The position numbers and the translations under genes are program-made. Below, in pieces: positions 3,423 to 28,105 of a stretch of 37,272 nt of DNA. A model generated the notes under the pieces. The model made no database searches and was not told where the DNA came from. It was given only the letters and a program-made list of their open reading frames with translations. This DNA is from Candidatus Woesearchaeota archaeon. Lineage in GTDB: Archaea; Nanobdellota; Nanobdellia; SCGC-AAA011-G17; GW2011-AR18. The stretch is taken from positions 12,320 through 49,591 of the forward strand of contig CAYXPX010000001.1 in assembly GCA_964467335.1 (NCBI GenBank), in the 5' to 3' direction. The first letter of the stretch is position 1. Every line of letters begins with the position of its first letter.

Positions 3423-3442
3423 GGTGTTTAATAAATCTTGTT
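3423..3442 (-). promoter_or_regulatory. BRE/TATA-like promoter element upstream of proS (AACAAGATTTATTAAACACC)
   Basis: A-rich and TTTATTAAA-containing 20-mer lying 16 nt upstream of the proS ATG. It is identical to the 20-mer at 21087-21106. Confidence 0.5.
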
Positions 3443-5608: not shown

Positions 5609-6827
5609 TATAAATCTCTGTTTTAGGGTGGACTGTCATGTTTTATTAAATAATTTTACAGTGTTCGATATAGGGAAGAATAGTGAATACTTTGAAAGCC
5701 CTAAAAAGAAATTTAGTGATTTTGCAAATAACTGCCTGCATGCGAACGGTCTTATTCTGCGCAAGCTTGAAGAGAACTTTAATTTAAGGGTTTCATATGT
5801 GCTGTCAGGCTCTGCAATTGATATTTTTGAGAAAAATTTTCCTGAAGTAATAGAATCTTTCAGAAAGATATCTAAAACAGGAAATGCTGAATTTCTTGCA
5901 GTGCCGTATTTCAGCCAGCTTTCATGCCTTTATTCAAAAGAAGAATTTTTGGAGCAGGTAAAAATGCACTCTCAAAAAATAAGGCAGCTCTTTGGTTTTC
6001 AGACAAAATTTTTCTTTGCAGATACAGGAATCACAACGGATTTGATAAAAAGTATAGAGAAAATAAAACTAAAGGGCATACTTGCAAAAGACAGCTTTCA
6101 TAATAATAACTATATATACAATTCGAGTGGTTCAAAAATAAAGATTATGCTAAAAAATTCCTATCTCTCATCATGCATAAACCAGCAGTTTTCAAACATG
6201 AACTGGAAGGGATGGCCGCTGACGTCTGAAAAATATGCAGGATGGATAAATAGGGAGGGGTTTCAGGCAGAATGCATTAATCTGGTGATTGATTATAATT
6301 CGTTTGGTACAAGGCATTCAAAAAGTTCCAGAATATTTTCACTATTTGCAAATCTTCCTGAAGAACTGCTGAAAAACCCTGCAAATATGTTTAGGACTCC
6401 GTCAGAGCTGGCTGATTTGTACAAATCACAAAATAAGTTCAGGCTGCAGAAAAGAATAAAAAAAATTTCAGGCGGCAGGCTTCAGATCAATGCCCTGGAA
6501 AAAATCTATTCACTTGAACATGATATAAAAAATACTGAAAAAAACACGTTGAACGCATGGAGAAATCTGCAGCATCCAAGCGTAATATCCTCGCTTTCAA
6601 AAAACAAAAACCCGCAGGAATCATATGAAAATTATATAAGGCTCTCGAATATTCTTGAAGATTTAAGGCATAAAATTGGCAAAATATCTGAAAAAAAGCC
6701 TAAAAAACAGGCTGTAAGACAGAAAAACCAAAATGAAAAAATTAATAAAGACCAGATTAAAAGGATTTATGTAGAAACACAAGAGGATATCATAAGAAAT
6801 CTGAAAGAGGTGTACAAAATTGGGTAA
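5595..6827 (+). CDS. GH57-like (alpha-amylase family 57-like) protein without recognisable catalytic motifs
   Basis: 410 aa with a TTG start that overlaps the upstream stop by 14 nt. The N-terminal half follows the GH57 layout (SYVLSGSAIDIFEKNFPEV, AEFLAVPYFSQLSCLY, FGFQTKFFFADTGI). HQP is replaced by DCH, and the NTE nucleophile position reads ADT. Confidence 0.4.
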   Translation: MNLVNINLCFRVDCHVLLNNFTVFDIGKNSEYFESPKKKFSDFANNCLHANGLILRKLEENFNLRVSYVLSGSAIDIFEKNFPEVIESFRKISKTGNAEFLAVPYFSQLSCLYSKEEFLEQVKMHSQKIRQLFGFQTKFFFADTGITTDLIKSIEKIKLKGILAKDSFHNNNYIYNSSGSKIKIMLKNSYLSSCINQQFSNMNWKGWPLTSEKYAGWINREGFQAECINLVIDYNSFGTRHSKSSRIFSLFANLPEELLKNPANMFRTPSELADLYKSQNKFRLQKRIKKISGGRLQINALEKIYSLEHDIKNTEKNTLNAWRNLQHPSVISSLSKNKNPQESYENYIRLSNILEDLRHKIGKISEKKPKKQAVRQKNQNEKINKDQIKRIYVETQEDIIRNLKEVYKIG

Positions 6828-7629
6828 GGTAATAGGGTTAATATCAATAAAAGGCGGTGTTGGAAAGACAACAGCGGTTATAAATATTGCCCATTCTCTT
6901 GCATCCTGCTATGGGAAGAAAGTGCTTGTTATAGACGCAAATTTTTCATGTCCTAATTTAAATCTTTATCTTGGAAACACAAACCCGAAACACACAGTGA
7001 GGGATGTGCTTAACAGCAGGGTAAAGGCAGGCTCTGCAGTCTATGAGCATGAGTATGGTTTTCATGTTCTCCCTTCATCTTTTAATGTCACAAACGGCAA
7101 CAACTTTCTTGGCTTGAAGGCAAGGGTGCAGAACTTTAAGAAATACTATGATTTTATAATTCTTGATTCCTCGCCTTCATTGAGCAACGAGCTTCTTGCG
7201 GCAATTGCAGCATCTGATGAGCTTTATGCTGTAAGTACGCCTGATTTGCCTACCTTAAGCACGACATTAAAGGCTGTAAAAGTTGCAAGGGACAAAAAAA
7301 TGAACATAAGCGGCTTAATATTAAATAAAGTAAGGGGAAAAAATTATGAGCTGAAGCCTGATGACATGGAGCGTCTGAGCGGGATTCCATTGTTTGGTGT
7401 CATAAAAGATGATGTGATGATTCCGGATTCTGTAGCAAGAGTAAAGCCTGTAACTCTTCTAAGCCACGATTCTGATATTTCAGAGGCATTCAGGAAAATC
7501 GCTGCGAAAATTGCAGGTGTAGAATATGAAGAGCCGAGATGGCACAGGAAATTATTTGCAAACATTAAAAATGATTTTTCTAGATTGTCAGCGCATAAAT
7601 TCTCAAGGGGATTGCTGTATTATAAGTGA
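6820..7629 (+). CDS. MinD/ParA-family P-loop ATPase
   Basis: Deviant Walker A motif (SIKGGVGKTT), plus VIDAN and ILDSSPS motifs. TTG start overlaps the upstream stop by 8 nt. Confidence 0.8.
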   Translation: MGKVIGLISIKGGVGKTTAVINIAHSLASCYGKKVLVIDANFSCPNLNLYLGNTNPKHTVRDVLNSRVKAGSAVYEHEYGFHVLPSSFNVTNGNNFLGLKARVQNFKKYYDFIILDSSPSLSNELLAAIAASDELYAVSTPDLPTLSTTLKAVKVARDKKMNISGLILNKVRGKNYELKPDDMERLSGIPLFGVIKDDVMIPDSVARVKPVTLLSHDSDISEAFRKIAAKIAGVEYEEPRWHRKLFANIKNDFSRLSAHKFSRGLLYYK

Positions 7630-7635
7630 AATTTG

Positions 7636-8196
7636 TTAATTTCTTATTCCAAGGCTGAAAACCAGATCCTCAAGCTTGTTCAGATTCCATTTTATTGCAT
7701 CAGACTTCTTTCGCAGTTCTCCATTCCTCAAATCAAATTTCAGAAATTCTCCGTAAATCTCTTCAACAATGTTTTTTATATTCAAAACGCTCTCAAAATC
7801 CTTCTTTATTGCATCATGCACTGCCTTTCTTCCAAGTTCGCCTGTCAGATCAGCAAGCCCAGACAAATAGGAAAATACATCAATGTTGAGATTTTTGGCT
7901 GTTGGCAGCCTGTTATTTTTTATAAGCTCAAAAAAAGCAACAGCCTCAACATATTCCTGATATGCAACACAGCTTATTGAAGTGTCATAATTTTTGTTTT
8001 TATCAAGCAGCTTTATCCTGCCATGTATTTCTTTGAGTAGTTTGGCTGCATTGTCAAAATCATTTCTATGCATAGAGTATATTATCTGTTTTGAAAGCCT
8101 GATTATGTCCCTTGAATTTCTTATTGTTTCCTCTCTTTTTTCCTCAAAATCATCAAGCTCCTTCCTTATGTTCTCAAAGTTTTTTTTGTCTATCAT
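7636..8196 (-). CDS. translin-family protein
   Basis: 186 aa. AYQEYVEAVAFFELIK and YLSGLADLTGELGRKAV match the translin/TRAX signature (GLADLTGEL). A TATA box lies 23 nt upstream of the ATG. Confidence 0.75.
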   Translation of the reverse strand: MIDKKNFENIRKELDDFEEKREETIRNSRDIIRLSKQIIYSMHRNDFDNAAKLLKEIHGRIKLLDKNKNYDTSISCVAYQEYVEAVAFFELIKNNRLPTAKNLNIDVFSYLSGLADLTGELGRKAVHDAIKKDFESVLNIKNIVEEIYGEFLKFDLRNGELRKKSDAIKWNLNKLEDLVFSLGIRN

Positions 8197-8219
8197 CTTC
8201 CAAAAGATATATTTTGTAG

Positions 8220-8227
8220 TATATAAG
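8220..8227 (-). promoter_or_regulatory. TATA box (CTTATATA) for the translin-like gene
   Basis: 23 nt separate it from ATG 8196. Confidence 0.4.
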
Positions 8228-8295
8228 TCTTGTGCAGCGATTTTTAAAAGATTTTTTGAATAAATTTAAAAAGTTATTTAATTCTCAGGACTGTC

Positions 8296-9330
8296 TTAAA
8301 ATTTGATTATTTCCCTAAAGATTTCTTCCTCTTCATTGGTGTGCAAAACTAAAATATTTTGGTTTTTTATCCCAAGGAACTTAAATTTTTTAATGATTAA
8401 GTTTCTTATAAAATGGGAATTCTCGCCGATTGCTCCTGTAAAAACAAGAAAATCCACGCCTCCAAGCACGGCCGCATATGCCCCGATATACTTTTCTACC
8501 TCATAGACAAATTTATCAACAGCCAGACTTGCTTTCTTATTGCCTGATTTTGAAAGTTTTGTAAGCTTGTCCATGCTGTCTGAAATTTCGCTTATGCCTA
8601 AAAATCCTGATTTTTCATTCAGGTATTCCTCAATACTGGTTATTTTTTTTGATTTTAAAATGTATAGTCCGGCATTAAAGTCAATATTGCCTGATCGTGT
8701 GCTCATCGGCAGGCCCTCCAAGGGAGTAAATCCCATGGAAGTTTCCACAGATTTTCCGTTTTTTACAGCAGTAATGCTTGAGCCGCCTCCAAGGTGGCAT
8801 ACAATTATCCTGGAAGGAATTTTCTTGTACTTTGACTTAATTTGCGAGATGACAGAACTAACAGATATGCCATGATAACCATATCTGTAAATTTGTAATC
8901 TCCTTGAATCCCTGATTGGAATGGCATAAAGTTTTGCAATTTCAGGCAGTGTGGAATGAAATCGGCTGTCTGAAACTCCGATGATCATTGAACTTGGAAA
9001 TTGTTTTTGCAGCTCTTTAATCTCTTCAAATGTCGGTCTGATATGCAGAGGAGCCATAGATACAGACTTTCCCAGCATTCTTAGATAATCTTTGTCAATG
9101 ATCCTATTTTGCTGAAAATAGAGTCCAGGCGAAACAACCCTTACTGCTATTTTTGTAATCTCCACTCCATTTTTTATTACATTGTTTTTCTTTAACACAT
9201 CTGAAATTTTTGGCAGGCCGCTGTTAGTCTTGAAATGTATATTAAATACAGACTTGTTTCTAAAGTAAACAGCATATCTCTTGGATGTGCTTCCAACGTT
9301 TACAATCAGATATTTGCCTTCCATTTCCAC
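8296..9330 (-). CDS. ackA: acetate kinase-like (short form)
   Basis: VNVGSTSKRY, SDSRFHSTLP, YGYHGISV, CHLGGGSSITAVKNGKSVETSMGFTPLEGLPMSTRSGNID and FTGAIGENS follow the acetate/propionate kinase motifs. It is 344 aa, versus about 400 aa as usually seen (recalled from memory). The start overlaps the phosphoketolase stop. Confidence 0.75.
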   Translation of the reverse strand: MEMEGKYLIVNVGSTSKRYAVYFRNKSVFNIHFKTNSGLPKISDVLKKNNVIKNGVEITKIAVRVVSPGLYFQQNRIIDKDYLRMLGKSVSMAPLHIRPTFEEIKELQKQFPSSMIIGVSDSRFHSTLPEIAKLYAIPIRDSRRLQIYRYGYHGISVSSVISQIKSKYKKIPSRIIVCHLGGGSSITAVKNGKSVETSMGFTPLEGLPMSTRSGNIDFNAGLYILKSKKITSIEEYLNEKSGFLGISEISDSMDKLTKLSKSGNKKASLAVDKFVYEVEKYIGAYAAVLGGVDFLVFTGAIGENSHFIRNLIIKKFKFLGIKNQNILVLHTNEEEEIFREIIKF

Positions 9331-11636
9331 TCGCTTATTTCAATTGGATCAACACCGTGCTTTTTAATATACACACAATGGTCTTTTAATTTTTTTTGGT
9401 ATTCCTGAATTAGTGTTTGTGATTTTTCTTTATTCATTACTTTCATCTCAGCCATCAGAGAAAGCGCCTCTGTCACCAGATGATACCTGCTTGTTTCATT
9501 TCTGACATGCATATCAAAGGGCGTTGTAGTAGAACCGTGCTCTGTATAGCCGTGAACTGAAAATCTCCCTGGATTGTTCTGGTATAAAAGCATCTGTTTG
9601 ATATCATTTGGGTAGCCGTGGTAATTCACAATTACTGGCTTGTTTTTTGTGAAATATTTTTCATATAATCCGCCTGCCATATGCGTTTTGCTGCCTATGC
9701 CAAAACTGGAAAGCTCCACTATGTTTACAAATCTTATTTTTATTTCTGGAGCAATATTATTTAATATCTGGATTGCTGCAAGAGATTCTTTGGTTAGATA
9801 ATCGCCTGCTGCAGCGAATATTATGTCTGGATTTTTGTCTGATGCAAATTCCCATGTCATCATGCCGTGCTGCATCGCCTCTCTTGCCTGCTGTGCTGTA
9901 AGCCATCTTGGTTCAAGCGTTTTTCCAGCAACAATAATATTTATGCCGTTTTTGGATTTTAGGCAATGCTCTAATACAACCAGGGTTGAATTTCCATCAG
10001 GCGGAAAATAAACTCTTGTAAAATCCCCGCTTTTTTCAAGCATTCCTGTAATAAATTTTGGATTCTGATGCGAGAAGCCGTTGTGCTCCTGCCTCCAGCC
10101 GGATGATGTAAGAATATAATTAAGGGACGCGATATTTCCTCTCCATGAAACAGTGTTTGCTTGCGATAAAAATTTTGCATACTGGTCTGCCATGCTACTC
10201 ACAATCTCAACAAAAGCTTCATAGGATGCAAAAATGCAATGCCTGCCTGTCAGTATATAGCCCTGTGCCAGACCCTGGAGAGAATGTTCACTTAGTATCT
10301 CTATGACTCTGCCAGAAGGAGAAATATCCCTGTCCCAGCTTTTTAACGGCCAGACAAATGCTCTTTTCGTTGTCCTGAATATTTCATCAAGTTTATTTGA
10401 ATAAGTTTCATCAGGAGAAAACAGTCTGAAGTTTTTTTTGTTTAGCTTAAAAACCTCATTCAGGTAAGATCCTGTTCTTCTCATGCTGCTCGAACCAATA
10501 ATGCCTGGAAAAGGAACTTCTTCTTCAAATTTTTTAATATCAGGCAGTTTAAGCGGTTTGTAATCTTTTGCAAATGCATGTATATTGCTGCCCATCCTGT
10601 TCTTTGGAACCAGATACATAATCTCCTGTATAAATCCGCTTTTCCTGTCAAACAGTTCATAAAATTTATATGATTTTAACCATTTCTCCACTGCTGTTAA
10701 ATGTATCTTGTTCTCTTTGGCTTCTTTTGCAATAACCTGGTGTGATAAGCAGTTGCCCTCAAGTTTGTCTCCATCAAGATTTTTTATTCCAGTCCAGCCC
10801 TTTGGGGTTTTTAAAATAATCATTGGAAATCTTGGAGAAACAAGACTGCTTTTTCCTCTCGCTTTGATTTGTATATCTTTGATTATTTTATAACTTTTTT
10901 CAAGGGCATTGATCATTTTGCTGTAGGGATTCTTGCCTTCAACAATTATAGGACAGTAACCATAGCCGTAAAATAATGATTTTAACTCTTTATTTGACAT
11001 TCTGCCAAAGATTGTCGGTCCTGAAATTTTGTATCCGTTTAAATGAAGTATCGGAAGAACTGCGCCGTTTGTTTTTGGATCTATAAATTTATTTAGGTGC
11101 CATGCCGCTGCTGTAGGACCTGTTTCTGCTTCCCCGTCACCAACAAGACAGGCAACAATTAAGCCAGTGTTGTCAAGTATTGCTCCATAAGAGGTTGACA
11201 ACGCATAACCCAGTTCTCCTCCCTCAAGTATGACTCCCGGAGTGCCAGGATTGCTGTGCGATGGGAATCCATAAGGAAAACTAAAATTTTTAGTAATATA
11301 TTCTATTCCCTCATTTGTTTGTTTTGCATTTGGATAAAATTTAGCGAGCGTTCCCTCTATGAACAAGTTTGCCTGCAGACCAGGGTATCCGTGCCCGGGA
11401 CCAAGCACAAACATCATGTTTAAATTGTGTTTTTTTATTAAGTAGTTTAAATTTGCATAAACAAAATTAATGCCAGGGCATGTTCCCCAGTGCCCGAGCA
11501 GCCTTGGTTTTATGTCTTCAGGAGTTAATTTCTCTTCTAAAAGAATATTGTACTGCAGGTAAATCTGAATTGCAGAAAGATAATTTGCTGCCCTTACATA
11601 TTTCTTCAAATATTGTACAACATCCCTCTTTTTCAT
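9306..11636 (-). CDS. xfp: xylulose-5-phosphate/fructose-6-phosphate phosphoketolase
   Basis: 776 aa. Contains LLGHWGTCPGINFVY, EGGELGYALS, GDGEAETGP, HLNGYKISGPT and the YGYxHGS-type C-terminal region, all typical phosphoketolase signatures. Confidence 0.9.
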   Translation of the reverse strand: MKKRDVVQYLKKYVRAANYLSAIQIYLQYNILLEEKLTPEDIKPRLLGHWGTCPGINFVYANLNYLIKKHNLNMMFVLGPGHGYPGLQANLFIEGTLAKFYPNAKQTNEGIEYITKNFSFPYGFPSHSNPGTPGVILEGGELGYALSTSYGAILDNTGLIVACLVGDGEAETGPTAAAWHLNKFIDPKTNGAVLPILHLNGYKISGPTIFGRMSNKELKSLFYGYGYCPIIVEGKNPYSKMINALEKSYKIIKDIQIKARGKSSLVSPRFPMIILKTPKGWTGIKNLDGDKLEGNCLSHQVIAKEAKENKIHLTAVEKWLKSYKFYELFDRKSGFIQEIMYLVPKNRMGSNIHAFAKDYKPLKLPDIKKFEEEVPFPGIIGSSSMRRTGSYLNEVFKLNKKNFRLFSPDETYSNKLDEIFRTTKRAFVWPLKSWDRDISPSGRVIEILSEHSLQGLAQGYILTGRHCIFASYEAFVEIVSSMADQYAKFLSQANTVSWRGNIASLNYILTSSGWRQEHNGFSHQNPKFITGMLEKSGDFTRVYFPPDGNSTLVVLEHCLKSKNGINIIVAGKTLEPRWLTAQQAREAMQHGMMTWEFASDKNPDIIFAAAGDYLTKESLAAIQILNNIAPEIKIRFVNIVELSSFGIGSKTHMAGGLYEKYFTKNKPVIVNYHGYPNDIKQMLLYQNNPGRFSVHGYTEHGSTTTPFDMHVRNETSRYHLVTEALSLMAEMKVMNKEKSQTLIQEYQKKLKDHCVYIKKHGVDPIEISEWKWKANI

Positions 11637-13313: not shown

Positions 13314-15488
13314 TTATTTTACTCCTTTTCTCTGCCTTATTTGCTGCACAACCTTCTGCTGCAATTCAATTGGCATCTTCTGGTATTCCTGGTCTGCAAC
13401 AAAGAAAGTCCCTCTTCCCTCAGTGGCGCTCCTCAATTCAGAGCTTAATCCAAACATCTCTCCGACAGGAAGTTTTGCCTTAACAACAACATAATTTCCG
13501 TCCTCCTTCATGTCAATGAGCTGTCCCCTCTTGTTTGCAATAAGTTTTGAAATTGCTCCCATGTGGTCCATAAGCCCCTCAATCTGCAGGACCTGGACAG
13601 GCTCAAATATAACAGCAGCAGCCTGCGTCATTGCCTCTCTTATGGCGTCCCTTATTGCAGGATAAACCTGCGCTGGCCCCCTGTGTATGCTGTCCTCATG
13701 AAGCTTGCAGTCATGCAGTTTAACAAGAATTTTAGCGCACGGTTCTCTTGCAAGAGGTCCGCCGTTCATCACCTGCTCAAAGCCGTCAAGCACAAGCTCA
13801 ATAACCTCTCCAAGCTGGACAATGCCCCTTGTAGCATCAACAAAAGCATTGCTGTTGTAAAAATGCCTGAAATTATGCGCTTCCTTTGTTTCAACGCCTG
13901 CCTCTACAAGCGCCTTTATTATGCTGTCATCTTTCTTTTTTATTCTTCCGCCATTTATTCTTCCCTCTTTTATAGCAGCATATATTGGATCTGGGAGCGG
14001 CTCAACAGTCAGGTAAAATTTATTGTGTTTGTTGGGCGTTTTTCCCTCAACTTCAATGCTCTTTTTGGAAACAGTTTCACGGTAAACAACAAGCGGCTGG
14101 CTTGATTTTATCTGCACGCCCTTCTCGCTTATTATCCTGTTTTCAATAATTTCAAGATGCAGTTCCCCCATTCCGCTCATTAAACATTCTCCAGTCTGCT
14201 CGTCAATCTGTATTTTTATTGAAGGATCTTCTTTTGCTGCAGCTTTTAAGACCTCAATTACTTTTGCAAGATCCTGCGGCTTTGTTGGTTCAATCGCCTT
14301 TGTGATTACAGGCTCAAAAATATGCCTCAGCTCTTCAAAAGGCTGTTCAGGTTCAAGTGTTATGGTTTCTCCTGCCTCTGCTTTAATACCTGCAAGTGCA
14401 AGAACATTGCCTGCAACAACATTCTCCATTATCTGCGTCTTGACGCCGTAATACATAAATACCTGCTGCAGTCTTGTTCTTAACTTTGCATTATTAAGAT
14501 AAATCTCAATGCCTGATTCAACAGTTCCTGAAAAAAGCCTGCCTGCAGCAATCTCTCTTCCTGTTCTCGGATCAATCATAATTCTTGTAACGCAAAAAGC
14601 AACTTTGCCGTTTTTATCGCAGTTGATTAAATTTTTTCCCAGTTCACTCTCAATATCACCGTGCCATATCTTGGGAATTCTGTATTTTTGGGCAACTAGT
14701 GGATCTGGAAGATGCTTGATTGCCATGTCAAGAATTACTTCATAAAGAGGTGCATTCTCCCATACCCATTTCTTCCTCTCCTCTTCAGGCATTTCATAGA
14801 TTTTTAGTATGTCTTTGAATGTAATGCCCTTTTTCTGCATAAATGAATAAGAGAGCGCCCAGTTCTCCCTTGCACTGCCGAATGCAACGCTTCCCTCTTG
14901 TATGCCAACCTTCCACTTTTCTTTGTAATCAGGTTCTGCAATCTGTTCAACAAGCCTGTTAAACTCTATTATTATTTCAGTAAATCTTTTCTGGATCTGC
15001 TCAGGAGTATACTGCATCTCTTTTATCAGCCTGTCAACCTTGTTCAAAAACAAAACAGGTTTTACTCTTTCTCTCAATGCCTGTTTTAACACAGTCTCCG
15101 TCTGTGGCATTATGCCCTCTGAAGCGCATACTAAGACAATGGTGCCGTCAATAGCCCTCATGGCTCTTGTGACATTCCCGCCAAAATCAACATGACCGGG
15201 AGTGTCAATAAGATTGATTAAATATTCTTCGCCACCATATTTATGAATCATGGAAACATTTGCTGCATCAACAGTCATTAATCTCTCCTGCTCGTCAGTA
15301 TGCTGCCATGTTGCCATGCCTGCATCAAGATCGCCTGCAGATTTTGTGCTCATCAAGCCCGCTGCTGCCAAAAGATTGTCAGTCATTGCCGTTTTTCCAT
15401 GGTGTATGTGGGCACTGGTGCATATATTTCTGATAAATTCAGGCCTGTTCATTGCCTTGCCAAACATTTTTACTGGATCATCTGCCAT
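13314..15488 (-). CDS. fusA: translation elongation factor 2 (aEF-2)
   Basis: AHIHHGKT P-loop, LIDTPGHVDFGGNVTRAMRAIDG, NKVDRLI, and the diphthamide-region HEDSIHRGPAQ. The start is placed at ATG 15488, 22 nt downstream of TTTATATA; the ORF track starts at 15500. Confidence 0.92.
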   Translation of the reverse strand: MADDPVKMFGKAMNRPEFIRNICTSAHIHHGKTAMTDNLLAAAGLMSTKSAGDLDAGMATWQHTDEQERLMTVDAANVSMIHKYGGEEYLINLIDTPGHVDFGGNVTRAMRAIDGTIVLVCASEGIMPQTETVLKQALRERVKPVLFLNKVDRLIKEMQYTPEQIQKRFTEIIIEFNRLVEQIAEPDYKEKWKVGIQEGSVAFGSARENWALSYSFMQKKGITFKDILKIYEMPEEERKKWVWENAPLYEVILDMAIKHLPDPLVAQKYRIPKIWHGDIESELGKNLINCDKNGKVAFCVTRIMIDPRTGREIAAGRLFSGTVESGIEIYLNNAKLRTRLQQVFMYYGVKTQIMENVVAGNVLALAGIKAEAGETITLEPEQPFEELRHIFEPVITKAIEPTKPQDLAKVIEVLKAAAKEDPSIKIQIDEQTGECLMSGMGELHLEIIENRIISEKGVQIKSSQPLVVYRETVSKKSIEVEGKTPNKHNKFYLTVEPLPDPIYAAIKEGRINGGRIKKKDDSIIKALVEAGVETKEAHNFRHFYNSNAFVDATRGIVQLGEVIELVLDGFEQVMNGGPLAREPCAKILVKLHDCKLHEDSIHRGPAQVYPAIRDAIREAMTQAAAVIFEPVQVLQIEGLMDHMGAISKLIANKRGQLIDMKEDGNYVVVKAKLPVGEMFGLSSELRSATEGRGTFFVADQEYQKMPIELQQKVVQQIRQRKGVK

Positions 15489-15510
15489 GAAGTTCCGCAT
15501 TTAGGAATCG

Positions 15511-15518
15511 TATATAAA
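15511..15518 (-). promoter_or_regulatory. TATA box (TTTATATA) for aEF-2
   Basis: 22 nt separate it from ATG 15488. Confidence 0.45.
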
Positions 15519-15541
15519 CCTTTTGGAGAAAATTCGTTAAG

Positions 15542-15549
15542 TTTATATG
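15542..15549 (+). promoter_or_regulatory. TATA box (TTTATATG) for the 67-aa ORF
   Basis: 22 nt separate it from ATG 15572. It is divergent from the aEF-2 promoter. Confidence 0.4.
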
Positions 15550-15571
15550 CAAAAAGAAACTAAAACTAAAT

Positions 15572-15775
15572 ATGAAAAAAGATAAGGAAAGTTCAGTGCA
15601 GGCAGCCTTGGAAGAAGCAGTATTTATTCTTAATGAGATTAGGATAAATAAAGTAAAAAAACTTGAGGAAACAAAACTTACACCAAAGCAGGAAAAAATA
15701 CTTGAAGAAATTGAAAATGATATTAATGCATGTGTCACAAAATTAGGCCTTCTTCTTCATGCAAAAGAATTATGA
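15572..15775 (+). CDS. small helical hypothetical protein
   Basis: 67-aa ORF. TTTATATG lies 22 nt upstream of the ATG. Coiled-coil-like composition. Confidence 0.35.
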   Translation: MKKDKESSVQAALEEAVFILNEIRINKVKKLEETKLTPKQEKILEEIENDINACVTKLGLLLHAKEL

Positions 15776-15838
15776 GTTGATTTATTGTTTATTTTATACT
15801 AAATAATCTTGTTATAATTTCTGTGGCTGAAATGTTGT

Positions 15839-15855
15839 ATAATTCCTGTTAGTTT
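15839..15855. repeat. 17-nt direct repeat copy 1 (ATAATTCCTGTTAGTTT)
   Basis: Exact match to 17500-17516. It is intergenic, upstream of the 114-aa ORF. Confidence 0.8.
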
Positions 15856-15882
15856 CTCAGAATGAAATGAGGAACTGAAAGG

Positions 15883-15890
15883 TTTATAAA
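15883..15890 (+). promoter_or_regulatory. TATA box (TTTATAAA) for the 114-aa ORF
   Basis: 22 nt separate it from ATG 15913. Confidence 0.45.
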
Positions 15891-15912
15891 GTTTAATCTC
15901 AAACCAATTAAT

Positions 15913-16257
15913 ATGGTAAGACCACTTGAGTATAATACTGGATTAAATTTGCAAGAAGCAGAAGAAAGATACAGAGAAGTAAGGGCTGAATTTGAAAAAG
16001 TTAAATCCCATTATTCTGGATTATTGGGGAGATTTAAAAAAAATTTGTGTGAAGGAGATAATAAAACATTAGTTGACTGTACAGGAGTTCTTCTGCCATT
16101 AGGAATGGAAGCTTCAGTTCAAGATCAAGTCAGGCAAACACAAAGTATTGAAGATACATTACACTATCAAATTGGGCAACTTAATTTTCAGATTATAGAT
16201 TATCTTGCAAATTTCAAAAATACTGGAGTTACAAGATGGTTCGAGCGAACATTGTAG
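15913..16257 (+). CDS. hypothetical protein (114 aa)
   Basis: TTTATAAA (15883-15890) lies 22 nt upstream of the ATG. Helical N-terminus. No family recognised. Confidence 0.45.
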   Translation: MVRPLEYNTGLNLQEAEERYREVRAEFEKVKSHYSGLLGRFKKNLCEGDNKTLVDCTGVLLPLGMEASVQDQVRQTQSIEDTLHYQIGQLNFQIIDYLANFKNTGVTRWFERTL

Positions 16258-16344
16258 GCTTTTTGATAGTACTTAAGATGGTCCCCTCCCATTCTAGACC
16301 CTAAAACCATTAATAATTTAAGTAATCGCTGTTTAATAATATAG

Positions 16345-17490
16345 ATGGTAAAGCTCTACGGAATAACACATAGTGCAAGCATAAATTCATTATTTTTTTC
16401 TATGCCTATAAATATTTCCCCTGCTCCAGAATTACTAGAAGATCTTGCAGAGCTTCCCAAAAGTTCAAAAATTGGTATTGAATGGATTGGAGAAACTGGC
16501 TGGCAGGAAGTCCAAGATGATTTAATGGGAAGAAGTTTTGATGCTGGATTGCAAGAGATCCCATTTTTTGATGACTTGGTTTCCAATTACTGGAGAATTA
16601 TAATTAATGAATTGCAGAGGCATTGTTTACACCCTGTTTTCTTGGAAAATAAAGATGTTTGGCTAAAATATAATCAAGCTGTTGTTGCTTTAGCAAAAGA
16701 AAGGCAGAATCAATTGTTTCATGGAGGAGAAGATGATAGAGATTATCATGAAAAATTATGCAGGCATAATGAAGCAAGAAAAAAAAGAGTTTTGGTCGCA
16801 AGGAGAATTCATGAGATTGAAAGAGACGAAGTTTTACTTTCTGCAGTTTCATCTGGGAATTTAGATGCTGCTATTGTTGGTTATGGACATGCAGATTATT
16901 GGATTGCAAATAAACAAAGAATTCAGCAACAAACAGGCATAATCTTTGATTCTTATTCCAAACAACAGCAAAATGGAAAAGGTTATCCGCTAACAGTCTT
17001 TGTAAGAAATGCAGAGCCAGACAAAAATATTATTTATCAGAGAAAAAGTCTTGAAAGGGCAATTAGATTAATGGAGCAGGGGAGAATTGCTGAAGGCACA
17101 CCAGATTATATTGGAACTTGGTGTGATTATGAGCCATCACAAGGGTATTTTGAAGTTTTTGTCCGTAAAAGAGATGGTGAAGATATTTCTGGAGTTATTG
17201 AGGATGTTTTAGGAAGTGCAACATTTAGTGGTAGAGTTAATAAAAAAGGCATTCAATTCACTAAAAATTATACTGATGCTTCGCCTGAAGCCATTAGAGG
17301 AGAAATACCGTACGAAGCAGAAAGAACAGGACAAGAATTTTATGGATTTTTCAAAGTCTCTGGTTTTAGAGCTCCATTTTATTTAATTGAAGCTGATAAA
17401 AAAGAACCTATTGAAATGGGCATAAGGTTGTTTGAGTTATTTCATCCAGGGAGAGTGCCAAATACAATTTTTCTTAGTGCCTCCGAGTAA
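16345..17490 (+). CDS. TraB/PrgY/Tiki-superfamily-like N-terminal domain fused to an uncharacterised beta-rich C-terminal domain
   Basis: Three N-terminal motifs match the family: LYGITHSAS (compare GTAHVS), IERDEVLLSAV (compare ERDxxM) and AIVGYGHADYW (compare VVGxGHxxG). The C-terminal ~140 aa has a G-x-W...G-x-F...F-x-K-x-Y strand pattern and is not assigned. Confidence 0.45.
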   Translation: MVKLYGITHSASINSLFFSMPINISPAPELLEDLAELPKSSKIGIEWIGETGWQEVQDDLMGRSFDAGLQEIPFFDDLVSNYWRIIINELQRHCLHPVFLENKDVWLKYNQAVVALAKERQNQLFHGGEDDRDYHEKLCRHNEARKKRVLVARRIHEIERDEVLLSAVSSGNLDAAIVGYGHADYWIANKQRIQQQTGIIFDSYSKQQQNGKGYPLTVFVRNAEPDKNIIYQRKSLERAIRLMEQGRIAEGTPDYIGTWCDYEPSQGYFEVFVRKRDGEDISGVIEDVLGSATFSGRVNKKGIQFTKNYTDASPEAIRGEIPYEAERTGQEFYGFFKVSGFRAPFYLIEADKKEPIEMGIRLFELFHPGRVPNTIFLSASE

Positions 17491-17499
17491 TAATTCAAC

Positions 17500-17516
17500 A
17501 TAATTCCTGTTAGTTT
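17500..17516. repeat. 17-nt direct repeat copy 2 (ATAATTCCTGTTAGTTT)
   Basis: Exact match to 15839-15855. It starts 10 nt after the stop of the 381-aa ORF. Confidence 0.8.
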
Positions 17517-17622
17517 AGTCTGACAGAAGGGAAGACCCAAATTTTATTGCAACGTTCCTAAGGAAAATTTTATATTTTAAGAGCCAGAGCTTTTATCAAT
17601 AATCTGCGAAGCAGACAATATT

Positions 17623-18033
17623 CTAGGGGTGCCCACTTATTTTACTTAATTCGTGTGTATTATGGACTTTTATTTTATCTTGCTCTTTTAGTCTCTTGTC
17701 ATTACTCCAAATGGCACAATTCAGTTTCAATGCAAGTGCAAAATAAGCCATGTCAGCAGGGTCAGGAGTAATCTTTTTTGCTTCTCCAACATAAGAAATA
17801 ATTTCTTCCAGAGGAACAATAACAATTCTTCGCTTTAATGTTTCAAGTAGTCTGAAAAATTCTTCTTCTGTTCGTTCTGTTTTCTCAAGAAGTTCCTCTT
17901 TATGCTTTTCCAATTCTGTGAAAATATATTCTGGAGTAAAGAGGTGAAATGAACCGCTAAAGAGAAGATTGTAAGCAAAGCTATCTTTAATCAAAACTGA
18001 AAATAGAACATTGGCATCAATGACGAGAACCAT
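17623..18033 (-). CDS. PIN-domain toxin (VapC-like)
   Basis: MVLVIDANVLF, FTELEKH, DPADMAYFALAL and IWSNDKRL supply the four acidic PIN residues. The start lies 2 nt after the upstream antitoxin stop. Confidence 0.75.
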   Translation of the reverse strand: MVLVIDANVLFSVLIKDSFAYNLLFSGSFHLFTPEYIFTELEKHKEELLEKTERTEEEFFRLLETLKRRIVIVPLEEIISYVGEAKKITPDPADMAYFALALKLNCAIWSNDKRLKEQDKIKVHNTHELSKISGHP

Positions 18034-18035
18034 AT

Positions 18036-18266
18036 TTACCTCGCCAGTTTACGCAACCTATCACTTACAGATTTACTAACCTCTTTTCCTAATCTCAAAG
18101 CGTCAGCTTCACTAAGCTTGCTTTTCTCTTTGAATTTTCTCAGAAACTCCATATCATCTATTTTCTGTATGAATGCTTGCCGAGCTACTTCAGACCAATT
18201 CATCTCTGGAAAAGAATCCATCTTCTTCTTCATCTCATCTGGAACAGCTAAAGTTAGGGTTGTCAT
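18036..18266 (-). CDS. RHH-type antitoxin (VapB-like)
   Basis: 76 aa. LTLAVPDEMKKKMDSFPEMNWSEVARQAF is the common archaeal antitoxin N-terminus. GGAGGT lies 6 nt upstream of the ATG. Confidence 0.6.
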   Translation of the reverse strand: MTTLTLAVPDEMKKKMDSFPEMNWSEVARQAFIQKIDDMEFLRKFKEKSKLSEADALRLGKEVSKSVSDRLRKLAR

Positions 18267-18280
18267 TTGAATACCTCCTG

Positions 18281-18310
18281 TATTATGTGTATATAATTAT
18301 ATTATGTGTA
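18281..18310. promoter_or_regulatory. two direct TATTATGTGTA repeats in the vapB-like promoter region (putative operator)
   Basis: 11-mers at 18281-18291 and 18300-18310 flank an AT-rich TATA-like stretch, 15-45 nt upstream of the antitoxin ATG. Confidence 0.4.
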
Positions 18311-18438
18311 AGTATTTAAATGTTTTTGTTGGTTAAATAGTTACTTACAAATAGTAACATAATATAAAGATTTATAGAGATGTAGTTTATTTATATTTAA
18401 GAAGAATAAAATGTTTAGAAGTAAAAAAGTTCCATCAT

Positions 18439-18448
18439 CTTTATATAT
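18439..18448 (+). promoter_or_regulatory. TATA box (CTTTATATAT) for the 243-aa ORF
   Basis: 23 nt separate it from ATG 18472. Confidence 0.45.
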
Positions 18449-18471
18449 GGGTATTCCTCTTTTATGATTTA

Positions 18472-19203
18472 ATGTTAGCATTACTTAAAAGAAAAATAGA
18501 TCCAGAACAAGCGAGAGTTGAAATTTCTGATGTAATTGAAAGGATTGAAGTAACTGCTTTTCCGATAATGCGAAGTTTTTATGTTGGGAAAAAAGTTGAT
18601 CCTGCTTTGGAAAAAGTTAATCCTGAACATAGAATCAGATTTTTATCTGATTCAAGGAGGGAATTAGGCTATCCAGTTAGTGAAGATGAATTATTCGTTC
18701 CAAATTATGCACGTCAGGAATTTCATTTTGATGTTGGATGTTCCGCTTTTTATCTTGCAGAAGGAACTCTTGTTCTTCCGGGATTGTCCGATAGGACTTA
18801 TGGATTAAAATTTGGGTTACCAACGCATCAATCACGTGAGCATTGGTGGTTTTTGAGATTGAGAGAGAAAAGTAATTCATATCATGGTTGCTCGGGAAAA
18901 AGAGTTGTTAAAGAATTATTAGAAGGTTCTGGAATCTCTGTTACAGGAGATGTTTTTCAAGTTGCTGGGATGGTAGCAGAGAATATCATGTTACATATTT
19001 TGGGACCTAAAGATGATGATGGACAATTGTTGGGGAGACAAAGAGCCCAAAATTTAATTGAAAAGGGATATGGAGCAGCAAGAGAAACCTATAAAGGATT
19101 AATGGAAAAAAGATTAAAACAAGGAATTTCAGAGAGATTACTTCCAGAAACCTTTGTGTATGAATTGGTAGGAAATACAGAGATAAATCCTCTTAACCAT
19201 TAA
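18472..19203 (+). CDS. hypothetical protein (243 aa)
   Basis: CTTTATATAT (18439-18448) lies 23 nt upstream of the ATG. No family recognised. Confidence 0.45.
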   Translation: MLALLKRKIDPEQARVEISDVIERIEVTAFPIMRSFYVGKKVDPALEKVNPEHRIRFLSDSRRELGYPVSEDELFVPNYARQEFHFDVGCSAFYLAEGTLVLPGLSDRTYGLKFGLPTHQSREHWWFLRLREKSNSYHGCSGKRVVKELLEGSGISVTGDVFQVAGMVAENIMLHILGPKDDDGQLLGRQRAQNLIEKGYGAARETYKGLMEKRLKQGISERLLPETFVYELVGNTEINPLNH

Positions 19204-19237
19204 TTCTATTCCATAAGCTTCTTTTTGTTGCCGCTAA

Positions 19238-19840
19238 TTACCTGCTTGAGGCAGCCTGTCTCTCAAGTTCAAGTTTTTTTGCTATTGCTTGGCTTCCTGC
19301 CTGGTCACCTCTGTAAGCAGCTAGAATTTCATCAGCAAGAGCCTGTGCAAGAGTCTTCTTCTTGCCAAAACTTTTGCTGTATGTCCCCTGAGTAAACTGC
19401 CTTAATGCAATGTCAACTCTTCTTTGCGGTGCGCAGTCAACAGCCTGCGGATATCTTGCTCCGCCGTATTCAATGGTTGTAATCTCCTCCCTTGGAGCTG
19501 CATTTTCCAGGGCTTTTACAAAAACTGCAACAGGATTTTGTTTTATATTTTGTTCAATGATTTCAAAGCACTTTCTTACAGCATTATAGACGTTCATGCT
19601 CTTGCCTGTCATATGGCTGCTCGTCCTGAAATGCTTTTTTCCCTTGTGTCCGGGCACCATAAGTTTGTTCATAAGCCTCTCAACAATATTTAGTTTGCTC
19701 TTTGCAAACCTCTGATTTGCATTCCTTCCAAAGCTTCTTGGAACTAGGACAGGATTAAGACCGATATATTTTCTAAGTCCAGGATCCTCTACAAAAACAT
19801 CTTTTATATCCCACATTCCAAATATTTTGAATTCAGCCAT
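19238..19840 (-). CDS. rps7: 30S ribosomal protein S7 (uS7)
   Basis: LVPRSFGRNANQRFAKSKLNIVERLMNKLM, and ENAAPREEITTIEYGGARYPQAVDCAPQRRVDIALR. The start is placed at ATG 19840 (MAEFKIF); the ORF track starts at TTG 19852. Confidence 0.92.
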   Translation of the reverse strand: MAEFKIFGMWDIKDVFVEDPGLRKYIGLNPVLVPRSFGRNANQRFAKSKLNIVERLMNKLMVPGHKGKKHFRTSSHMTGKSMNVYNAVRKCFEIIEQNIKQNPVAVFVKALENAAPREEITTIEYGGARYPQAVDCAPQRRVDIALRQFTQGTYSKSFGKKKTLAQALADEILAAYRGDQAGSQAIAKKLELERQAASSR

Positions 19841-19863
19841 AATCCAGGGCAAATGTCTAAAAT

Positions 19864-20631
19864 TTATAAGCTTTCTGTTTCAAAATCCAGCTTTATCTCA
19901 GTGCTGTAATATGTAGCGCCGCCTGTAAATCTTATCGTGCATATGAATAATCTTGTTTTTTCAGGAACACCGTTGATTTCAAGGTAATATAATGCAGTAT
20001 TATTGGGAAAGTAATTTCCCTTAAGCACAACCTTGTTTTCATCACCCTCGAAATAGTCCTTCATGGAAATATTGTTGTAAACATCCTTTTCATTTTTCTC
20101 ATCATAATAAATAACATTAGAATCTATCCGCCTGCATGTAAAGGAAGAAGACAAACTGCTTAATGGGAGCTCGCCGATGTTTTCCATCTGTGATTTTAGT
20201 ATGCTGCTTCCTGTTACAATAAAATTATCCTCGTTTAAAGTGCATCTTCCCTCGCAGCTGAATTCAGACAGCGTTAGAACGCCAGCGCAGGTTCTTGGGC
20301 AGTCTAAAGGACAGACCGTCATATGGGTTTCATCATTGCATCTCTCTGAAAAATCGCAAAAGCCGTCGCCGCAGCATGTTTCAAGTCTTTTATACTCGCA
20401 TTTTCCAGTTGCCTCATTAAAAACATCATCTGTGCAATCATTGTTGTCATCACACGAGGGAATCTCAAAAGCCTCTTCGTCGTCAGCATTCTCTTTAAGT
20501 GAATCATCAGAAACATTTTCAGTGGCATTGCCAACATCAGCATCTGATATGCTGATTTCTTCAGAAGGACTTGCACAGGCTGTAAAAAAAATTGCAAGGC
20601 ATAAAAATAAATAAAATAAAACTTTTGGCAT
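19864..20631 (-). CDS. Cys-rich secreted lipoprotein-like protein
   Basis: Signal peptide with a lipobox-like FTAC, then an acidic linker. A Cys module follows (CDDNNDCTDD...CEY...CCGDGFCDFSERCNDETHMTVCPLDCPRTC), then a beta-rich C-terminal domain. The ATG shares one base with the rps12 stop (TAATG). Confidence 0.6.
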   Translation of the reverse strand: MPKVLFYLFLCLAIFFTACASPSEEISISDADVGNATENVSDDSLKENADDEEAFEIPSCDDNNDCTDDVFNEATGKCEYKRLETCCGDGFCDFSERCNDETHMTVCPLDCPRTCAGVLTLSEFSCEGRCTLNEDNFIVTGSSILKSQMENIGELPLSSLSSSFTCRRIDSNVIYYDEKNEKDVYNNISMKDYFEGDENKVVLKGNYFPNNTALYYLEINGVPEKTRLFICTIRFTGGATYYSTEIKLDFETESL

Positions 20632-21086: not shown

Positions 21087-21106
21087 GGTGTTTAATAAAT
21101 CTTGTT
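21087..21106 (-). promoter_or_regulatory. BRE/TATA-like promoter element upstream of rps12 (identical 20-mer)
   Basis: Same 20 nt as at 3423-3442, lying 18 nt upstream of the rps12 ATG. Confidence 0.5.
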
Positions 21107-21108
21107 GT

Positions 21109-23565
21109 TTAATCTCTGTATCTAAGTCTTACAGCAACTGTATATCCTGTACCGCCGCCACCGCCGTCTCCGCCTCCATCACCACTATGACCTCCTCCGC
21201 TATCTCCGCCAGAATATCCTCCCTCTCCTCCGCTATAACCTCCGCCTCCAAATCCTTCACCAGAATATCCTCCGCTCCCTTCGCCCCCGCCACTAAAGCG
21301 GTAACTTCCCTCAGAACCTCCTCCGCTAAAGTAAGATTCATATCCTTCAGGAGGGCTAAAACCTTCAGGTACTGAAAATCCCTCTCCATATGGTCCGCCA
21401 ACATATCCCCCGCTAGTGTAGGCTTCATAAGCTCCGCTGTCTATCTCTCCCCCATGCTCAAAGTAAGCCTCATAACGCCCCTCCCTATCCTCTTCACTTA
21501 AAGAAAATACCTCGCCAAATATTCTCTGTCTGTCCTCTTCAGAATATGAACTTCTGAATTCTTCTCTATGGCTGTCAAATCTCCCAAGCATCCCGCTCAC
21601 AGAACTTTCATAGGTTCCAGCGCGCTCTGGATGTGCAGTCAAATAATCTTTTTCAGGACCGTCAGGCAATGAATCAACTCCCCCGGCAAGATAAGCCTCG
21701 TAAGCCTCTCTAACACTCTCAACATGTGCAGCAACATCAGGAACAACAAAGAACTCAGGCCTCCTGTTGAGTACATCAGGATTATTCTCGACAAAATAAG
21801 CAGCCTCCTTTCCAAATCCAAACTCAGCATGCTCAATCAAAAACTTCTCATATTTTTTAGTCATCTCAGGATTAATATTCTCAAGTCTCTTTGCCTCTAC
21901 GCTGAGGTCATCTGCCAGATTTGGGTTATCATCAAGATAAGAAGCATAATCTTTTTGATAAGTTACTAAATAAGTTTCACGGAAGTTCTTAAAATCTTCA
22001 GGATTTTCAGAATCTCTCATTGCATCTATAAATTCATGAGGAATATTCTCAACAGGAGAAAATGTTAATCCTGTGTCTATGAATCTCTCAAAATTATAAT
22101 AGTCAATAGCATCAGGAACATCATTGCCGTTTGCATCATCATCATCCTCGTTCAATTCTCCGTCGCCGTCAATGTCATCGTCATCATAATCATAAATTCC
22201 ATCATCATCAGTATCAATAAAATCACCATAGTTTTCAGCAACTTCATCCCTGTGTTCATAGATATCATCTAAATTGCCTGAAAATGTCAGGCCATCTTCA
22301 ACTCCATCTCCATTTATGTCATCATCCTCTCCATTCAGAATTCCATCGCCATCAAAATCACCGCCGGCAAAATCATCAAACTCCTCAATATCATCTGTGC
22401 CGCTTCCGTCAGCATCGCTATCTTCCCAGTCAACTATGCCATCATCATCAAAGTCATTGTCAGGCAGCGTAACAGCAAAAATCTCAAGTCTCTGCCCGTC
22501 ATATTCCTCCTGGCTTATTAATCCATCGCCGTCGCTGTCAGTAAATCCTAAATCTGTTAATTCAGTCTGTCTTTCTTCACTGTTTATATCAGCCTGAATT
22601 GGGGCAGGAAATATGCTGGGCCTCTGTTCATCATATTCATCAGCATCAATAAGACCATCGCCGTTTGTATCAGTAAATCCTATTTCCCTTAGTTGGTTTT
22701 GACGGTCAACACTATCTATTATTTCTTCTATATCATCGTCAAAAAGTCCATCGCCATTCCAGTCATTCTGGATATCGCTTTCGCTCATAGGCTGACCATT
22801 CCAGTCATACAATCCGTCGCCGTCAAGATCAAAGTCATCCTCATTAACAACTCCATCACCATTAAAGTCAGCATCCTCCATAGTCATTCTGCCGTCTCCA
22901 TTCAGGTCATCATTGTCTCCATCCCCGTCAGGGTCAGTATCAATATCATCAGGAATCCCATCACCATCAAAATCTCCAGGACCAAGGTTTGTCTCAAAAT
23001 CATCTGAAAAGTCTCCTGTATTTTGTTCCAGTTCACTAAGGTGCTGCTCCATAACATCCAAATGGCTAAGCAGTAGGGTATTGCCGCTTTCCTCAGCAGC
23101 GCTTCTCATTTGTTCTAAAATTGCTCCAAGTTCATCAATCTCAACATTAAGCTCAAGCAGGTAATTATCAGCAGTTTCCTCAACACCCTCTGAAAGCTGG
23201 TCATCCAGCTCATCAACATAGAATGAAATTGTGTTGCTTGTATATAATCTTCTGATTCTTAATGCAGCGTCCATCACAGCAGGATCTCTTGATTCAATTG
23301 CAATATTAACCAGGGCATTAACATCATCACTAAGTTTATTATCAGATTCCCTGACACCAGAAAATGATTCCTTGAGGTTATCTCTTTCAATAGCACTCAA
23401 TGCAGGAGCAACATTATCTGCTCTTAATCCTGACAATGAAGAAACACTCTGTGCTTCCTCCTGGGTTTCAGCCTCTTCACTAACCTGCTGCTGCTGACAG
23501 GAAGCCAAAATTAAAATCAAAACTAGAAAAAATACCCAAAATACGCCATATCTTTTTTTAAACAT
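21109..23565 (-). CDS. large hyper-acidic secreted lipoprotein-like protein with DxDxDG calcium-binding-type repeats and a Gly/Ser/Tyr-rich tail
   Basis: The start is placed at ATG 23565 ([23 protein letters not shown], with lipobox-like LASC), with a TATA box 23-24 nt upstream. Many DFDGDG, DPDGDG, NGDG and DIDGDG loops are present. There are two FTD(T/S)(N/D)GDGLI..EEYD units. The C-terminus is made of GGYSGG-type repeats. Confidence 0.65.
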
Positions 23566-23588
23566 AGAGTATTTCAAGAAAGCAAATA

Positions 23589-27675: not shown

Positions 27676-28104
27676 TCAAACTCTTGCATAACCTCCGGCT
27701 GTATTTGGTCTGATTGTAACGATCTTGTGTGCTTCTGTGCCGCTGAATATTACTCTGCCTGAATTAAATAAAACAGATTCGATTCCTGCCAGATCTTCAA
27801 TAAGGCTCTGAGATAGAGAACTTAAAATTCTGTTGGCTAGTTCATCCTCAGTTGGAGTTTTTCTTTTGATTTTATCAGCAAATTTTAAAAAAGAAAAAAC
27901 ATCATCATGAGCTTCAAAAAGCCTTTCAGTTCCATAGATATAAGGCACAGAAAATGTAATGGTTTCCTCTCCGCGTGAAAGAGCAAGACCGTCAGCAGGA
28001 GGAAAAATAATAACCCCATAACTTGTTTCATGGCTGTCTTTCTCATCTAAGACAATATATGGAAATCCTCCAGCATCTCTTAGTTTATATTTAGGTAAAT
28101 TCAT
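27676..28104 (-). CDS. hypothetical 142-aa protein embedded in the RNA polymerase operon
   Basis: The ATG at 28104 lies 1 nt after the rpoB' stop and 8 nt downstream of AAGGAG. Its TGA stop lies 2 nt before the rpoA' ATG. No family recognised. The ORF-track start at 28146 would overlap rpoB'. Confidence 0.55.
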   Translation of the reverse strand: MNLPKYKLRDAGGFPYIVLDEKDSHETSYGVIIFPPADGLALSRGEETITFSVPYIYGTERLFEAHDDVFSFLKFADKIKRKTPTEDELANRILSSLSQSLIEDLAGIESVLFNSGRVIFSGTEAHKIVTIRPNTAGGYARV

Positions 28105-28105
28105 T

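Follow-up and report, generated by a model that had tools for sequence, protein, structure and literature searches.

Genes between S7 and EF-2

The sequence analysed here is a 37,272-nt stretch of contig CAYXPX010000001.1 from a Candidatus Woesearchaeota archaeon (hereafter, the window), and the subject of this work is the gap that separates its genes for ribosomal protein S7 and archaeal elongation factor 2 (aEF-2; hereafter, EF-2). The initial annotation of the window had placed six genes of mixed orientation in this gap and read them as an accessory island. The open reading frame (ORF) map of the window contains all six, and their coordinates are confirmed (Table 1). The EF-2 gene matches five EF-G/EF-2 Pfam domains over their cut-offs, with a best E value of 1e-47. 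Two of the six genes encode a PIN-domain toxin and its putative antitoxin. The other four, encoding proteins of 67, 114, 381 and 243 amino acids (aa), had been described as lacking any recognizable family, and this description stands, as none of them gave a family match in Pfam, NCBIfam, PADLOC or PHROGs. Comparison of profiles of the 114-, 381- and 243-aa families with solved structures returned nothing significant.

Table 1. Coordinates of features in the S7/EF-2 gap, its flanks and other junctions of the window
Feature	Position	Strand	Evidence or remarks
aEF-2 gene	13314-15500	-	Pfam GTP_EFTU, EFG_III, EFG_IV, EFG_C
67-aa helical protein	15572-15775	+	ORF map; own TATA 15542-15549
17-nt direct repeat ATAATTCCTGTTAGTTT, copy 1	15839-15855	+	Perfect repeat
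114-aa predicted four-helix bundle	15913-16257	+	ORF map; own TATA 15883-15890
381-aa two-domain protein	16345-17490	+	ORF map, family motifs, AlphaFold2 model
17-nt direct repeat ATAATTCCTGTTAGTTT, copy 2	17500-17516	+	Perfect repeat
VapC-type PIN toxin, 136 aa	17623-18033	-	Pfam PIN_2, PIN
VapB-like antitoxin, 76 aa	18036-18266	-	Sub-threshold match to NCBIfam NF050799
Tandem 19-bp repeat (TATTATGTGTA...)	18281-18318	.	Overlaps vapBC promoter
243-aa protein, very sparse Woesearchaeota family	18472-19203	+	ORF map; own TATA 18440-18447
Ribosomal protein S7 gene, right-hand flank	19238-19852	-	Pfam Ribosomal_S7, 2.3e-35
255-aa Cys-rich signal-peptide protein, S12/S7 junction	19864-20631	-	No Pfam match
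822-aa acidic, Gly-rich secreted protein, NusA/S12 junction	21109-23577	-	No Pfam match
156-aa ORF, rpoB'/rpoA' junction	27676-28146	-	No Pfam match

Promoter-like elements were read from the sequence. TATA-like octamers lie 22 nt 5' of the ATG of both the 67-aa gene (TTTATATG) and the 114-aa gene (TTTATAAA), and 24 nt 5' of that of the 243-aa gene (TTTATATA). The 381-aa gene has no clear TATA box, just a weak A/T-rich candidate. The initial statement that each plus-strand gene has its own TATA box at a spacing of 22-23 nt thus holds for the first two genes and, at a slightly longer distance, for the third, but not for the 381-aa gene. As the plus-strand genes have separate promoters, they do not form an operon. 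The toxin-antitoxin pair carries a TATA box and a GGAGG ribosome-binding site 5' of the 76-aa antitoxin gene. EF-2 had also been assigned a promoter of its own, 22 nt from the ATG; a promoter-like element is indeed present (TTTATATA on the minus strand, 15518-15511), but the 22 nt are counted from the second in-frame ATG (15488, MADDP...), the first (15500) being merely 10 nt away. Homologues of EF-2 align from residue ~5, that is, around the second ATG, which is likely to be the true start. On the evidence of these sequence elements, transcription of the genes may be leaderless.

The G+C content is 31-35% in the gap versus 39-43% in EF-2 and S7. Comparably low values occur elsewhere in the window outside the core genes, so the composition of the gap is not foreign.

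Synteny of the cluster in related genomes

For comparison, EF-2 loci were collected from 80 genomes, each representing a species and almost all carrying a Woesearchaeota, Pacearchaeota or Nanoarchaeia label; their EF-2 sequences are 59-80% identical (individual related loci are given below as L followed by a number). S7 and S12 were located in these loci by tblastn, by which 67 loci were informative and 13 uninformative. In three of the 67, no more than 300 bp separate EF-2 from an upstream S7. The two genes are separated by a gap in a further 16 (301-1000 bp in 11 loci, 1.0-2.3 kb in five), S7 is found downstream of EF-2 in two, and in 46 it was not found in the available 2-10 kb upstream of EF-2. 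The opposite junction is eroded too: among 64 informative genomes, EF-1alpha directly follows EF-2 in 14, lies 0.5-7.9 kb after it in 28, and was not found within at least 3 kb after it in 22. The premise that the gap interrupts a highly conserved locus is therefore not borne out in this lineage. With the S7/EF-2 and EF-2/EF-1alpha junctions eroded across these relatives and further junctions broken in the window, broken synteny is the lineage norm.

The initial view that the region is variable between genomes is supported, since the S7/EF-2 gap carries differing cargo, mostly of ORFs without Pfam matches. HMG-CoA reductase and a 176-aa unknown protein are encoded in the gap of L022, a Na/sulfate-type symporter and membrane proteins in that of L015, and a DUF1428 protein in that of L076. 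The remaining gap ORFs have no Pfam match and are mutually dissimilar, save for one related pair and one within-locus duplicate. The 255-aa gene found at the S12/S7 junction of the window is absent from the same junction of the close relative L022.

Co-occurrence and searches for defence or mobile functions

Profile hidden Markov models of the 67-, 114-, 381- and 243-aa families were used to search all ORFs of 110 related loci, amounting to 1.56 Mb. No locus besides the window carries two of these families. The 114-, 381- and 243-aa genes, for which the initial annotation had proposed a test of co-occurrence, are instead scattered among housekeeping neighbourhoods and never stand together, an outcome that the initial annotation had itself named as contradicting its reading.

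The search with a defence-system predictor, also proposed at the outset, was empty for all four unknown proteins: PADLOC-DB 2.0 gave no match for the 67-, 114-, 381- and 243-aa proteins or for the 76-aa antitoxin, and the PIN protein gave just a weak match (2.9e-4) to part of a methyltransferase model. A known defence system was rejected on this basis, as the PADLOC, PHROGs and NCBIfam scans show nothing beyond the toxin-antitoxin pair. A mobile element was likewise considered and rejected. No integrase or recombinase domain, tRNA or Rfam element was found in or next to the gap, and there is no tRNA in the window; att-like ends are lacking, the sole flanking repeat being a 17-mer around two of the inner genes. 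None of the 114-, 381- and 243-aa families was found on viral contigs, and in relatives the genes are dispersed.

The toxin-antitoxin pair

The 136-aa protein matches the Pfam families PIN_2 (1.6e-26; 93.5 bits against a cut-off of 22.4) and PIN (4.3e-8), and inspection of its translation by eye against the known PIN pattern places the acidic residues D6, E40, D94 and D112 at canonical positions. The 76-aa protein gave a weak match to the Sulfolobus-type VapB model NF050799 (1.9e-6, with 28 bits versus a cut-off of 60). The antitoxin gene is upstream of the toxin gene and ends 2 nt ahead of the toxin start (18033). A homologous pair is present in L025, 6 kb downstream of EF-2, with 46% and 42% identity. 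The PIN toxin and antitoxin recognized initially are real, with the profile matches in support, and constitute an ordinary (canonical) type II VapBC module. The tandem repeat overlapping its promoter is a possible antitoxin operator.

Toxin-antitoxin genes unrelated to the window pair are also found near EF-2 in other relatives, namely a PIN gene with a 79-aa gene between EF-2 and EF-1alpha in L022, and an AbiEii-type pair in L024. With examples in the window, L022, L024 and L025, such modules are thus common around this region, in varying positions.

The 67-aa and 114-aa genes

Homologues of the 67-aa gene lie on the opposite strand upstream of EF-2 in L021 (65% identity), L024 (60%) and L023 (~50%, partial). 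The gene is accordingly a divergent EF-2 neighbour in three of the four closest relatives; L022 is without it. Because of this arrangement in the closest relatives, the 67-aa gene belongs with EF-2 and not with any insert.

The 114-aa family comprises 30 homologues of 50-88% identity from Woesearchaeota/Nanoarchaeia, with a mean column identity of 64%. The AlphaFold2 model, calculated from 29 sequences, is a confident four-helix bundle with a predicted local distance difference test score (pLDDT) of 91.5. No PDB fold match to this model was found at E<1, the best having E=1.3, and the family has no HEPN-type Rx4-6H motif. Homologues immediately precede rpoH in L011-L013 (973-1320 and equivalents) and rps12-rps7 in L015-L017 (8001-8348 and equivalents), in each case on the same strand. 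Elsewhere the gene adjoins an M48 peptidase gene (L007) or DnaJ (L104), or lies near Dph2 (L101). The family is associated with the transcription/translation supercluster in three of the six contexts examined in detail. A metagenome scan with the family yielded four loci, three of which repeat known contexts.

The 381-aa protein

Twelve homologues were found for the 381-aa protein. The N-terminal part of the AlphaFold2 model (pLDDT 88.7) is an alpha/beta domain, and the C-terminal part, at about residues 255-348, is a predicted calycin-like antiparallel beta-barrel with seven or more predicted strands. Across 12 sequences, the invariant or near-invariant residues are G6xxH9, E46, E101, R153/H156/E157/E159/R160-D161 and G179xxH182. 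In the predicted alpha/beta fold, which contains beta-alpha units, the conserved residues are placed at the C-terminal ends of strands.

A whole-chain Foldseek search returned only barrel matches among the top 50 PDB entries, with no TIKI fold listed. The barrel matches in the PDB are weak and include avidin, FABP, nitrobindin and TbpB (E 0.03-0.15), and the barrel match in BFVD is to a Pithovirus protein (E 1.6e-3). A stand-alone barrel paralogue of 147 aa is encoded in L005 (5438-5881, minus strand), 4 kb from a full-length homologue, and was identified by hmmsearch at 5.5e-13. The barrel is thus a module in its own right, in support of the description of the 381-aa protein as a fusion.

In three independent genomes, the 381-aa gene adjoins CysRS (L001), UPF0147 (L004), and a histone gene together with genes resembling those of type IV secretion systems (L005). 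Minimal nucleotidyltransferase genes (NTP_transf_2/Polbeta) occur upstream on the opposite strand in two of these three contexts. In L001 the nucleotidyltransferase gene (9255-9869, minus strand) is directly adjacent to the 381-aa homologue, and in L004 (6846-8822, minus strand) two small ORFs lie between them. This neighbourhood may be a coincidence, such genes being common in archaea.

The 243-aa protein

The 243-aa family is very sparse, with four close homologues and 16 clusters among 1.84 billion representatives, and no member has a Pfam match. Only G98 and Y207 are invariant in the alignment, and no fully conserved polar or catalytic-looking position stands out. A profile match to a designed repeat protein was discarded as spurious, arising from low complexity. 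The gene adjoins TFB in L018, follows ABCE1 and an F420-oxidoreductase-like gene in L020, and lies between Nre and phosphoglycerate mutase (iPGM) on the ~1-Mb contig of L109. It is predicted to be a lineage-specific soluble protein, and no further prediction is justified.

Origin of the gap

Taken together, the results make it probable that the gap is a mosaic of chromosomal genes, independent of one another and transcribed separately, at an eroded junction of the RNA polymerase (RNAP)-str cluster, and not one inserted element or one functional system. What the genes are, that their families do not co-occur and that the junction is eroded across the lineage are direct observations; the biochemical roles of the unknown proteins, VapB autoregulation and leaderless transcription are inferred. 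The S7/EF-2 junction has lost its linkage throughout the Woesearchaeota/Pacearchaeota lineage. The 67-aa gene travels with EF-2 as its divergent neighbour, and the 114-aa gene is a core-like gene of the lineage that is mobile in position, often heading rpoH or rps12 operons. The 381-aa protein would be a hydrolase, with catalytic motifs of TraB/TIKI type and a small beta-barrel of the kind that binds ligands. VapB would neutralize the PIN RNase and probably repress its own promoter through the tandem repeat, and the 243-aa gene represents an orphan family.

Several points weigh against a mosaic. Co-occurrence was tested within ~10 kb and not genome-wide, so that functional linkage over a distance is possible, and the 381-aa and 243-aa families are each represented by a small sample of 3-4 independent contexts. 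The nearest available relative is 80% identical in EF-2; consequently, the recent history of the gap and any exact insertion boundaries are not reconstructable at the DNA level. That several close relatives carry toxin-antitoxin modules near EF-2 may point to a true hotspot for accessory genes and not to passive erosion. Finally, the perfect 17-nt repeat ATAATTCCTGTTAGTTT, which sits in intergenic DNA on either side of the 114-aa and 381-aa genes, could mean that these two genes arrived jointly.

If the junctions of the str cluster were true hotspots that gain and lose accessory and toxin-antitoxin genes, the gap would be a loose islet whose genes do not cooperate. We regard this as possible though rather unlikely. 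It would account for the varied cargo that 16 genomes carry between S7 and EF-2 and for the toxin-antitoxin modules near EF-2 in the window, L022, L024 and L025, but it presupposes an enrichment over the background rate of toxin-antitoxin genes or of gene turnover elsewhere in these genomes. Part of the cargo, including the HMG-CoA reductase and the transporter, is clearly of a housekeeping nature, and neither an integrase nor att-like ends were found. Furthermore, S7 and EF-2 are far apart in most genomes, which resembles rearrangement more than insertion.

A second possibility is that the 114-aa and 381-aa genes entered jointly, on a segment of 1.66 kb, with the 17-nt repeats as a duplicated target or recombination site. 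The two copies do lie in the intergenic DNA on the outer sides of precisely this gene pair, but joint insertion is improbable because the genes are never neighbours elsewhere. The homology of the repeats stops at 17 nt, and 27% of windows simulated with a third-order Markov model contain an exact repeat at least 17 nt long. In view of this chance frequency and the lack of co-occurrence of the two genes elsewhere, the repeat was rejected as an insertion scar. The 17-mer is absent from 100 related loci, and no recombinase is encoded nearby.

The initial reading, that the unknown genes and VapBC constitute a coherent defence or addiction island and one undescribed system, had in its favour the adjacency of the genes in this one genome, the four genes without a known family and the toxin-antitoxin pair in their midst, but is now very improbable, as no two of the families stand together at the related loci, where they occur at unrelated, housekeeping positions, the unknowns have no PADLOC match, the mixed orientation and individual promoters make them separate transcription units, and the 114-aa family is too conserved for typical defence cargo.

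The mosaic reading carries a caution for genome annotation. In DPANN archaea such as the Woesearchaeota, the 'universally conserved' RNAP-str order is heavily eroded, and a break holding hypothetical genes and a toxin-antitoxin pair is there the usual condition and does not by itself mark mobile DNA or defence genes. Where disrupted core gene order serves as the criterion for islands, scans of these lineages will over-call. A secondary value lies in the 114-aa and 381-aa families, two uncharacterized, lineage-restricted families with confident structure predictions that offer modest stand-alone leads. The helical bundle is of interest because it is associated with operons for RNAP and ribosomal proteins, and the 381-aa protein because it combines TIKI-like motifs with a beta-barrel. 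It is conceivable, if doubtful, that the 381-aa family is a new Woesearchaeota-restricted branch of TIKI/TraB proteins with an added calycin barrel and, jointly, that the 114-aa protein is a lineage-specific factor linked to transcription and translation; either would be independent of an island.

Other features of the window and related loci

The rpoB'' gene of the window (997 aa; 29910-32903, minus strand) contains an intein, as identified by the Pfam family Intein_splicing (6e-14). Intein-sized insertions are also seen in the EF-2 genes of several relatives. In L024 EF-2 is a 1219-aa ORF (6229-9888), and tblastn spans for EF-2 of 2.7-3.7 kb in L029, L046, L048, L061 and L076 correspond to insertions of this size.

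Downstream of EF-2, the phosphoketolase gene (XFP, 776 aa) adjoins that for acetate kinase (8296-11636, minus strand). The two form a compact module leading from pentose and hexose phosphates to acetate, which is notable in a reduced genome of the DPANN type.

A perfect 20-nt repeat, GGTGTTTAATAAATCTTGTT, is found at 3423-3442 and 21087-21106, where the copies are directly 5' of the starts of ProRS (3406, minus strand) and S12 (21068, minus strand). The repeat is probably a promoter or TATA element common to these two translation genes.

Comparison with known systems

Members of the TIKI/TraB/PrgY/GumN superfamily have an alpha/beta fold with a central parallel beta-sheet that can be superposed on ChaN, Bcr135 or RRSP. 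E. coli YbaP, a member with the signature motifs GSIH, VEAD, IELEG, QRN and VGALH, offers a direct comparison with the 381-aa protein. Both have the same motif order, with GxxH after strand 1, Glu after strand 2, Glu after strand 3, (E)R(D/N) and a second GxxH, and the Arg-to-His spacing is 22 residues in the 381-aa protein versus 23 in YbaP. Enzymes of this superfamily, which also takes in the erythromycin esterases (Pfam PF01963 and relatives), are defined by two His, two Glu and a basic residue (PMC6254334), a pattern that the 381-aa protein fits. Conservation at these TIKI-type positions is 90% or more across the 12 sequences of the family, and in part complete.

However, the 381-aa protein has no profile match to PF01963 or YbaP and no fold match to TIKI proteins among the top 50 PDB entries. 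None of the 12 family members gave a Pfam match of any kind, even at E<=10, whereas YbaP itself matches PF01963 at 8.8e-44. Alignment of the family with YbaP by hhalign gave a probability of 0.65%, and no intermediate sequences linking the family to TraB were found in the related loci. The C-terminal calycin-like barrel is a candidate further difference. The initial label of a TraB/Tiki-like fusion protein is consequently upheld in its motif pattern and its separate barrel module, and is left without support from PF01963, hhalign or fold comparison. On balance, we favour the view that the 381-aa protein works like a hydrolase of TIKI/TraB type and is a putative member of the family.

The canonical archaeal cluster has the order rpoH-rpoB-rpoA-L30e-NusA-S12-S7-EF2-EF1alpha-S10. 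The window resembles it in the order rpoB''-rpoB'-rpoA'-rpoA''-NusA-S12-S7-EF-2, all on one strand, but is interrupted at four junctions, and metabolic genes, not EF-1alpha, come after EF-2. The adjacency of S7 to EF-2 and of EF-2 to EF-1alpha is exceptional among the 80 relatives.

The toxin-antitoxin pair agrees with type II VapBC modules in its antitoxin-then-toxin order and 2-nt spacing, in the PIN_2/PIN domain with its four acidic residues, and in having a small antitoxin with a weak VapB match, a promoter repeat and a counterpart kept in L025. There is no essential difference; the antitoxin scores below the NCBIfam cut-off, and its fold, initially given as RHH, is putative. What lies in the gap is of known kinds: a VapBC module and lineage-specific hypothetical genes, in a setting of DPANN synteny erosion.

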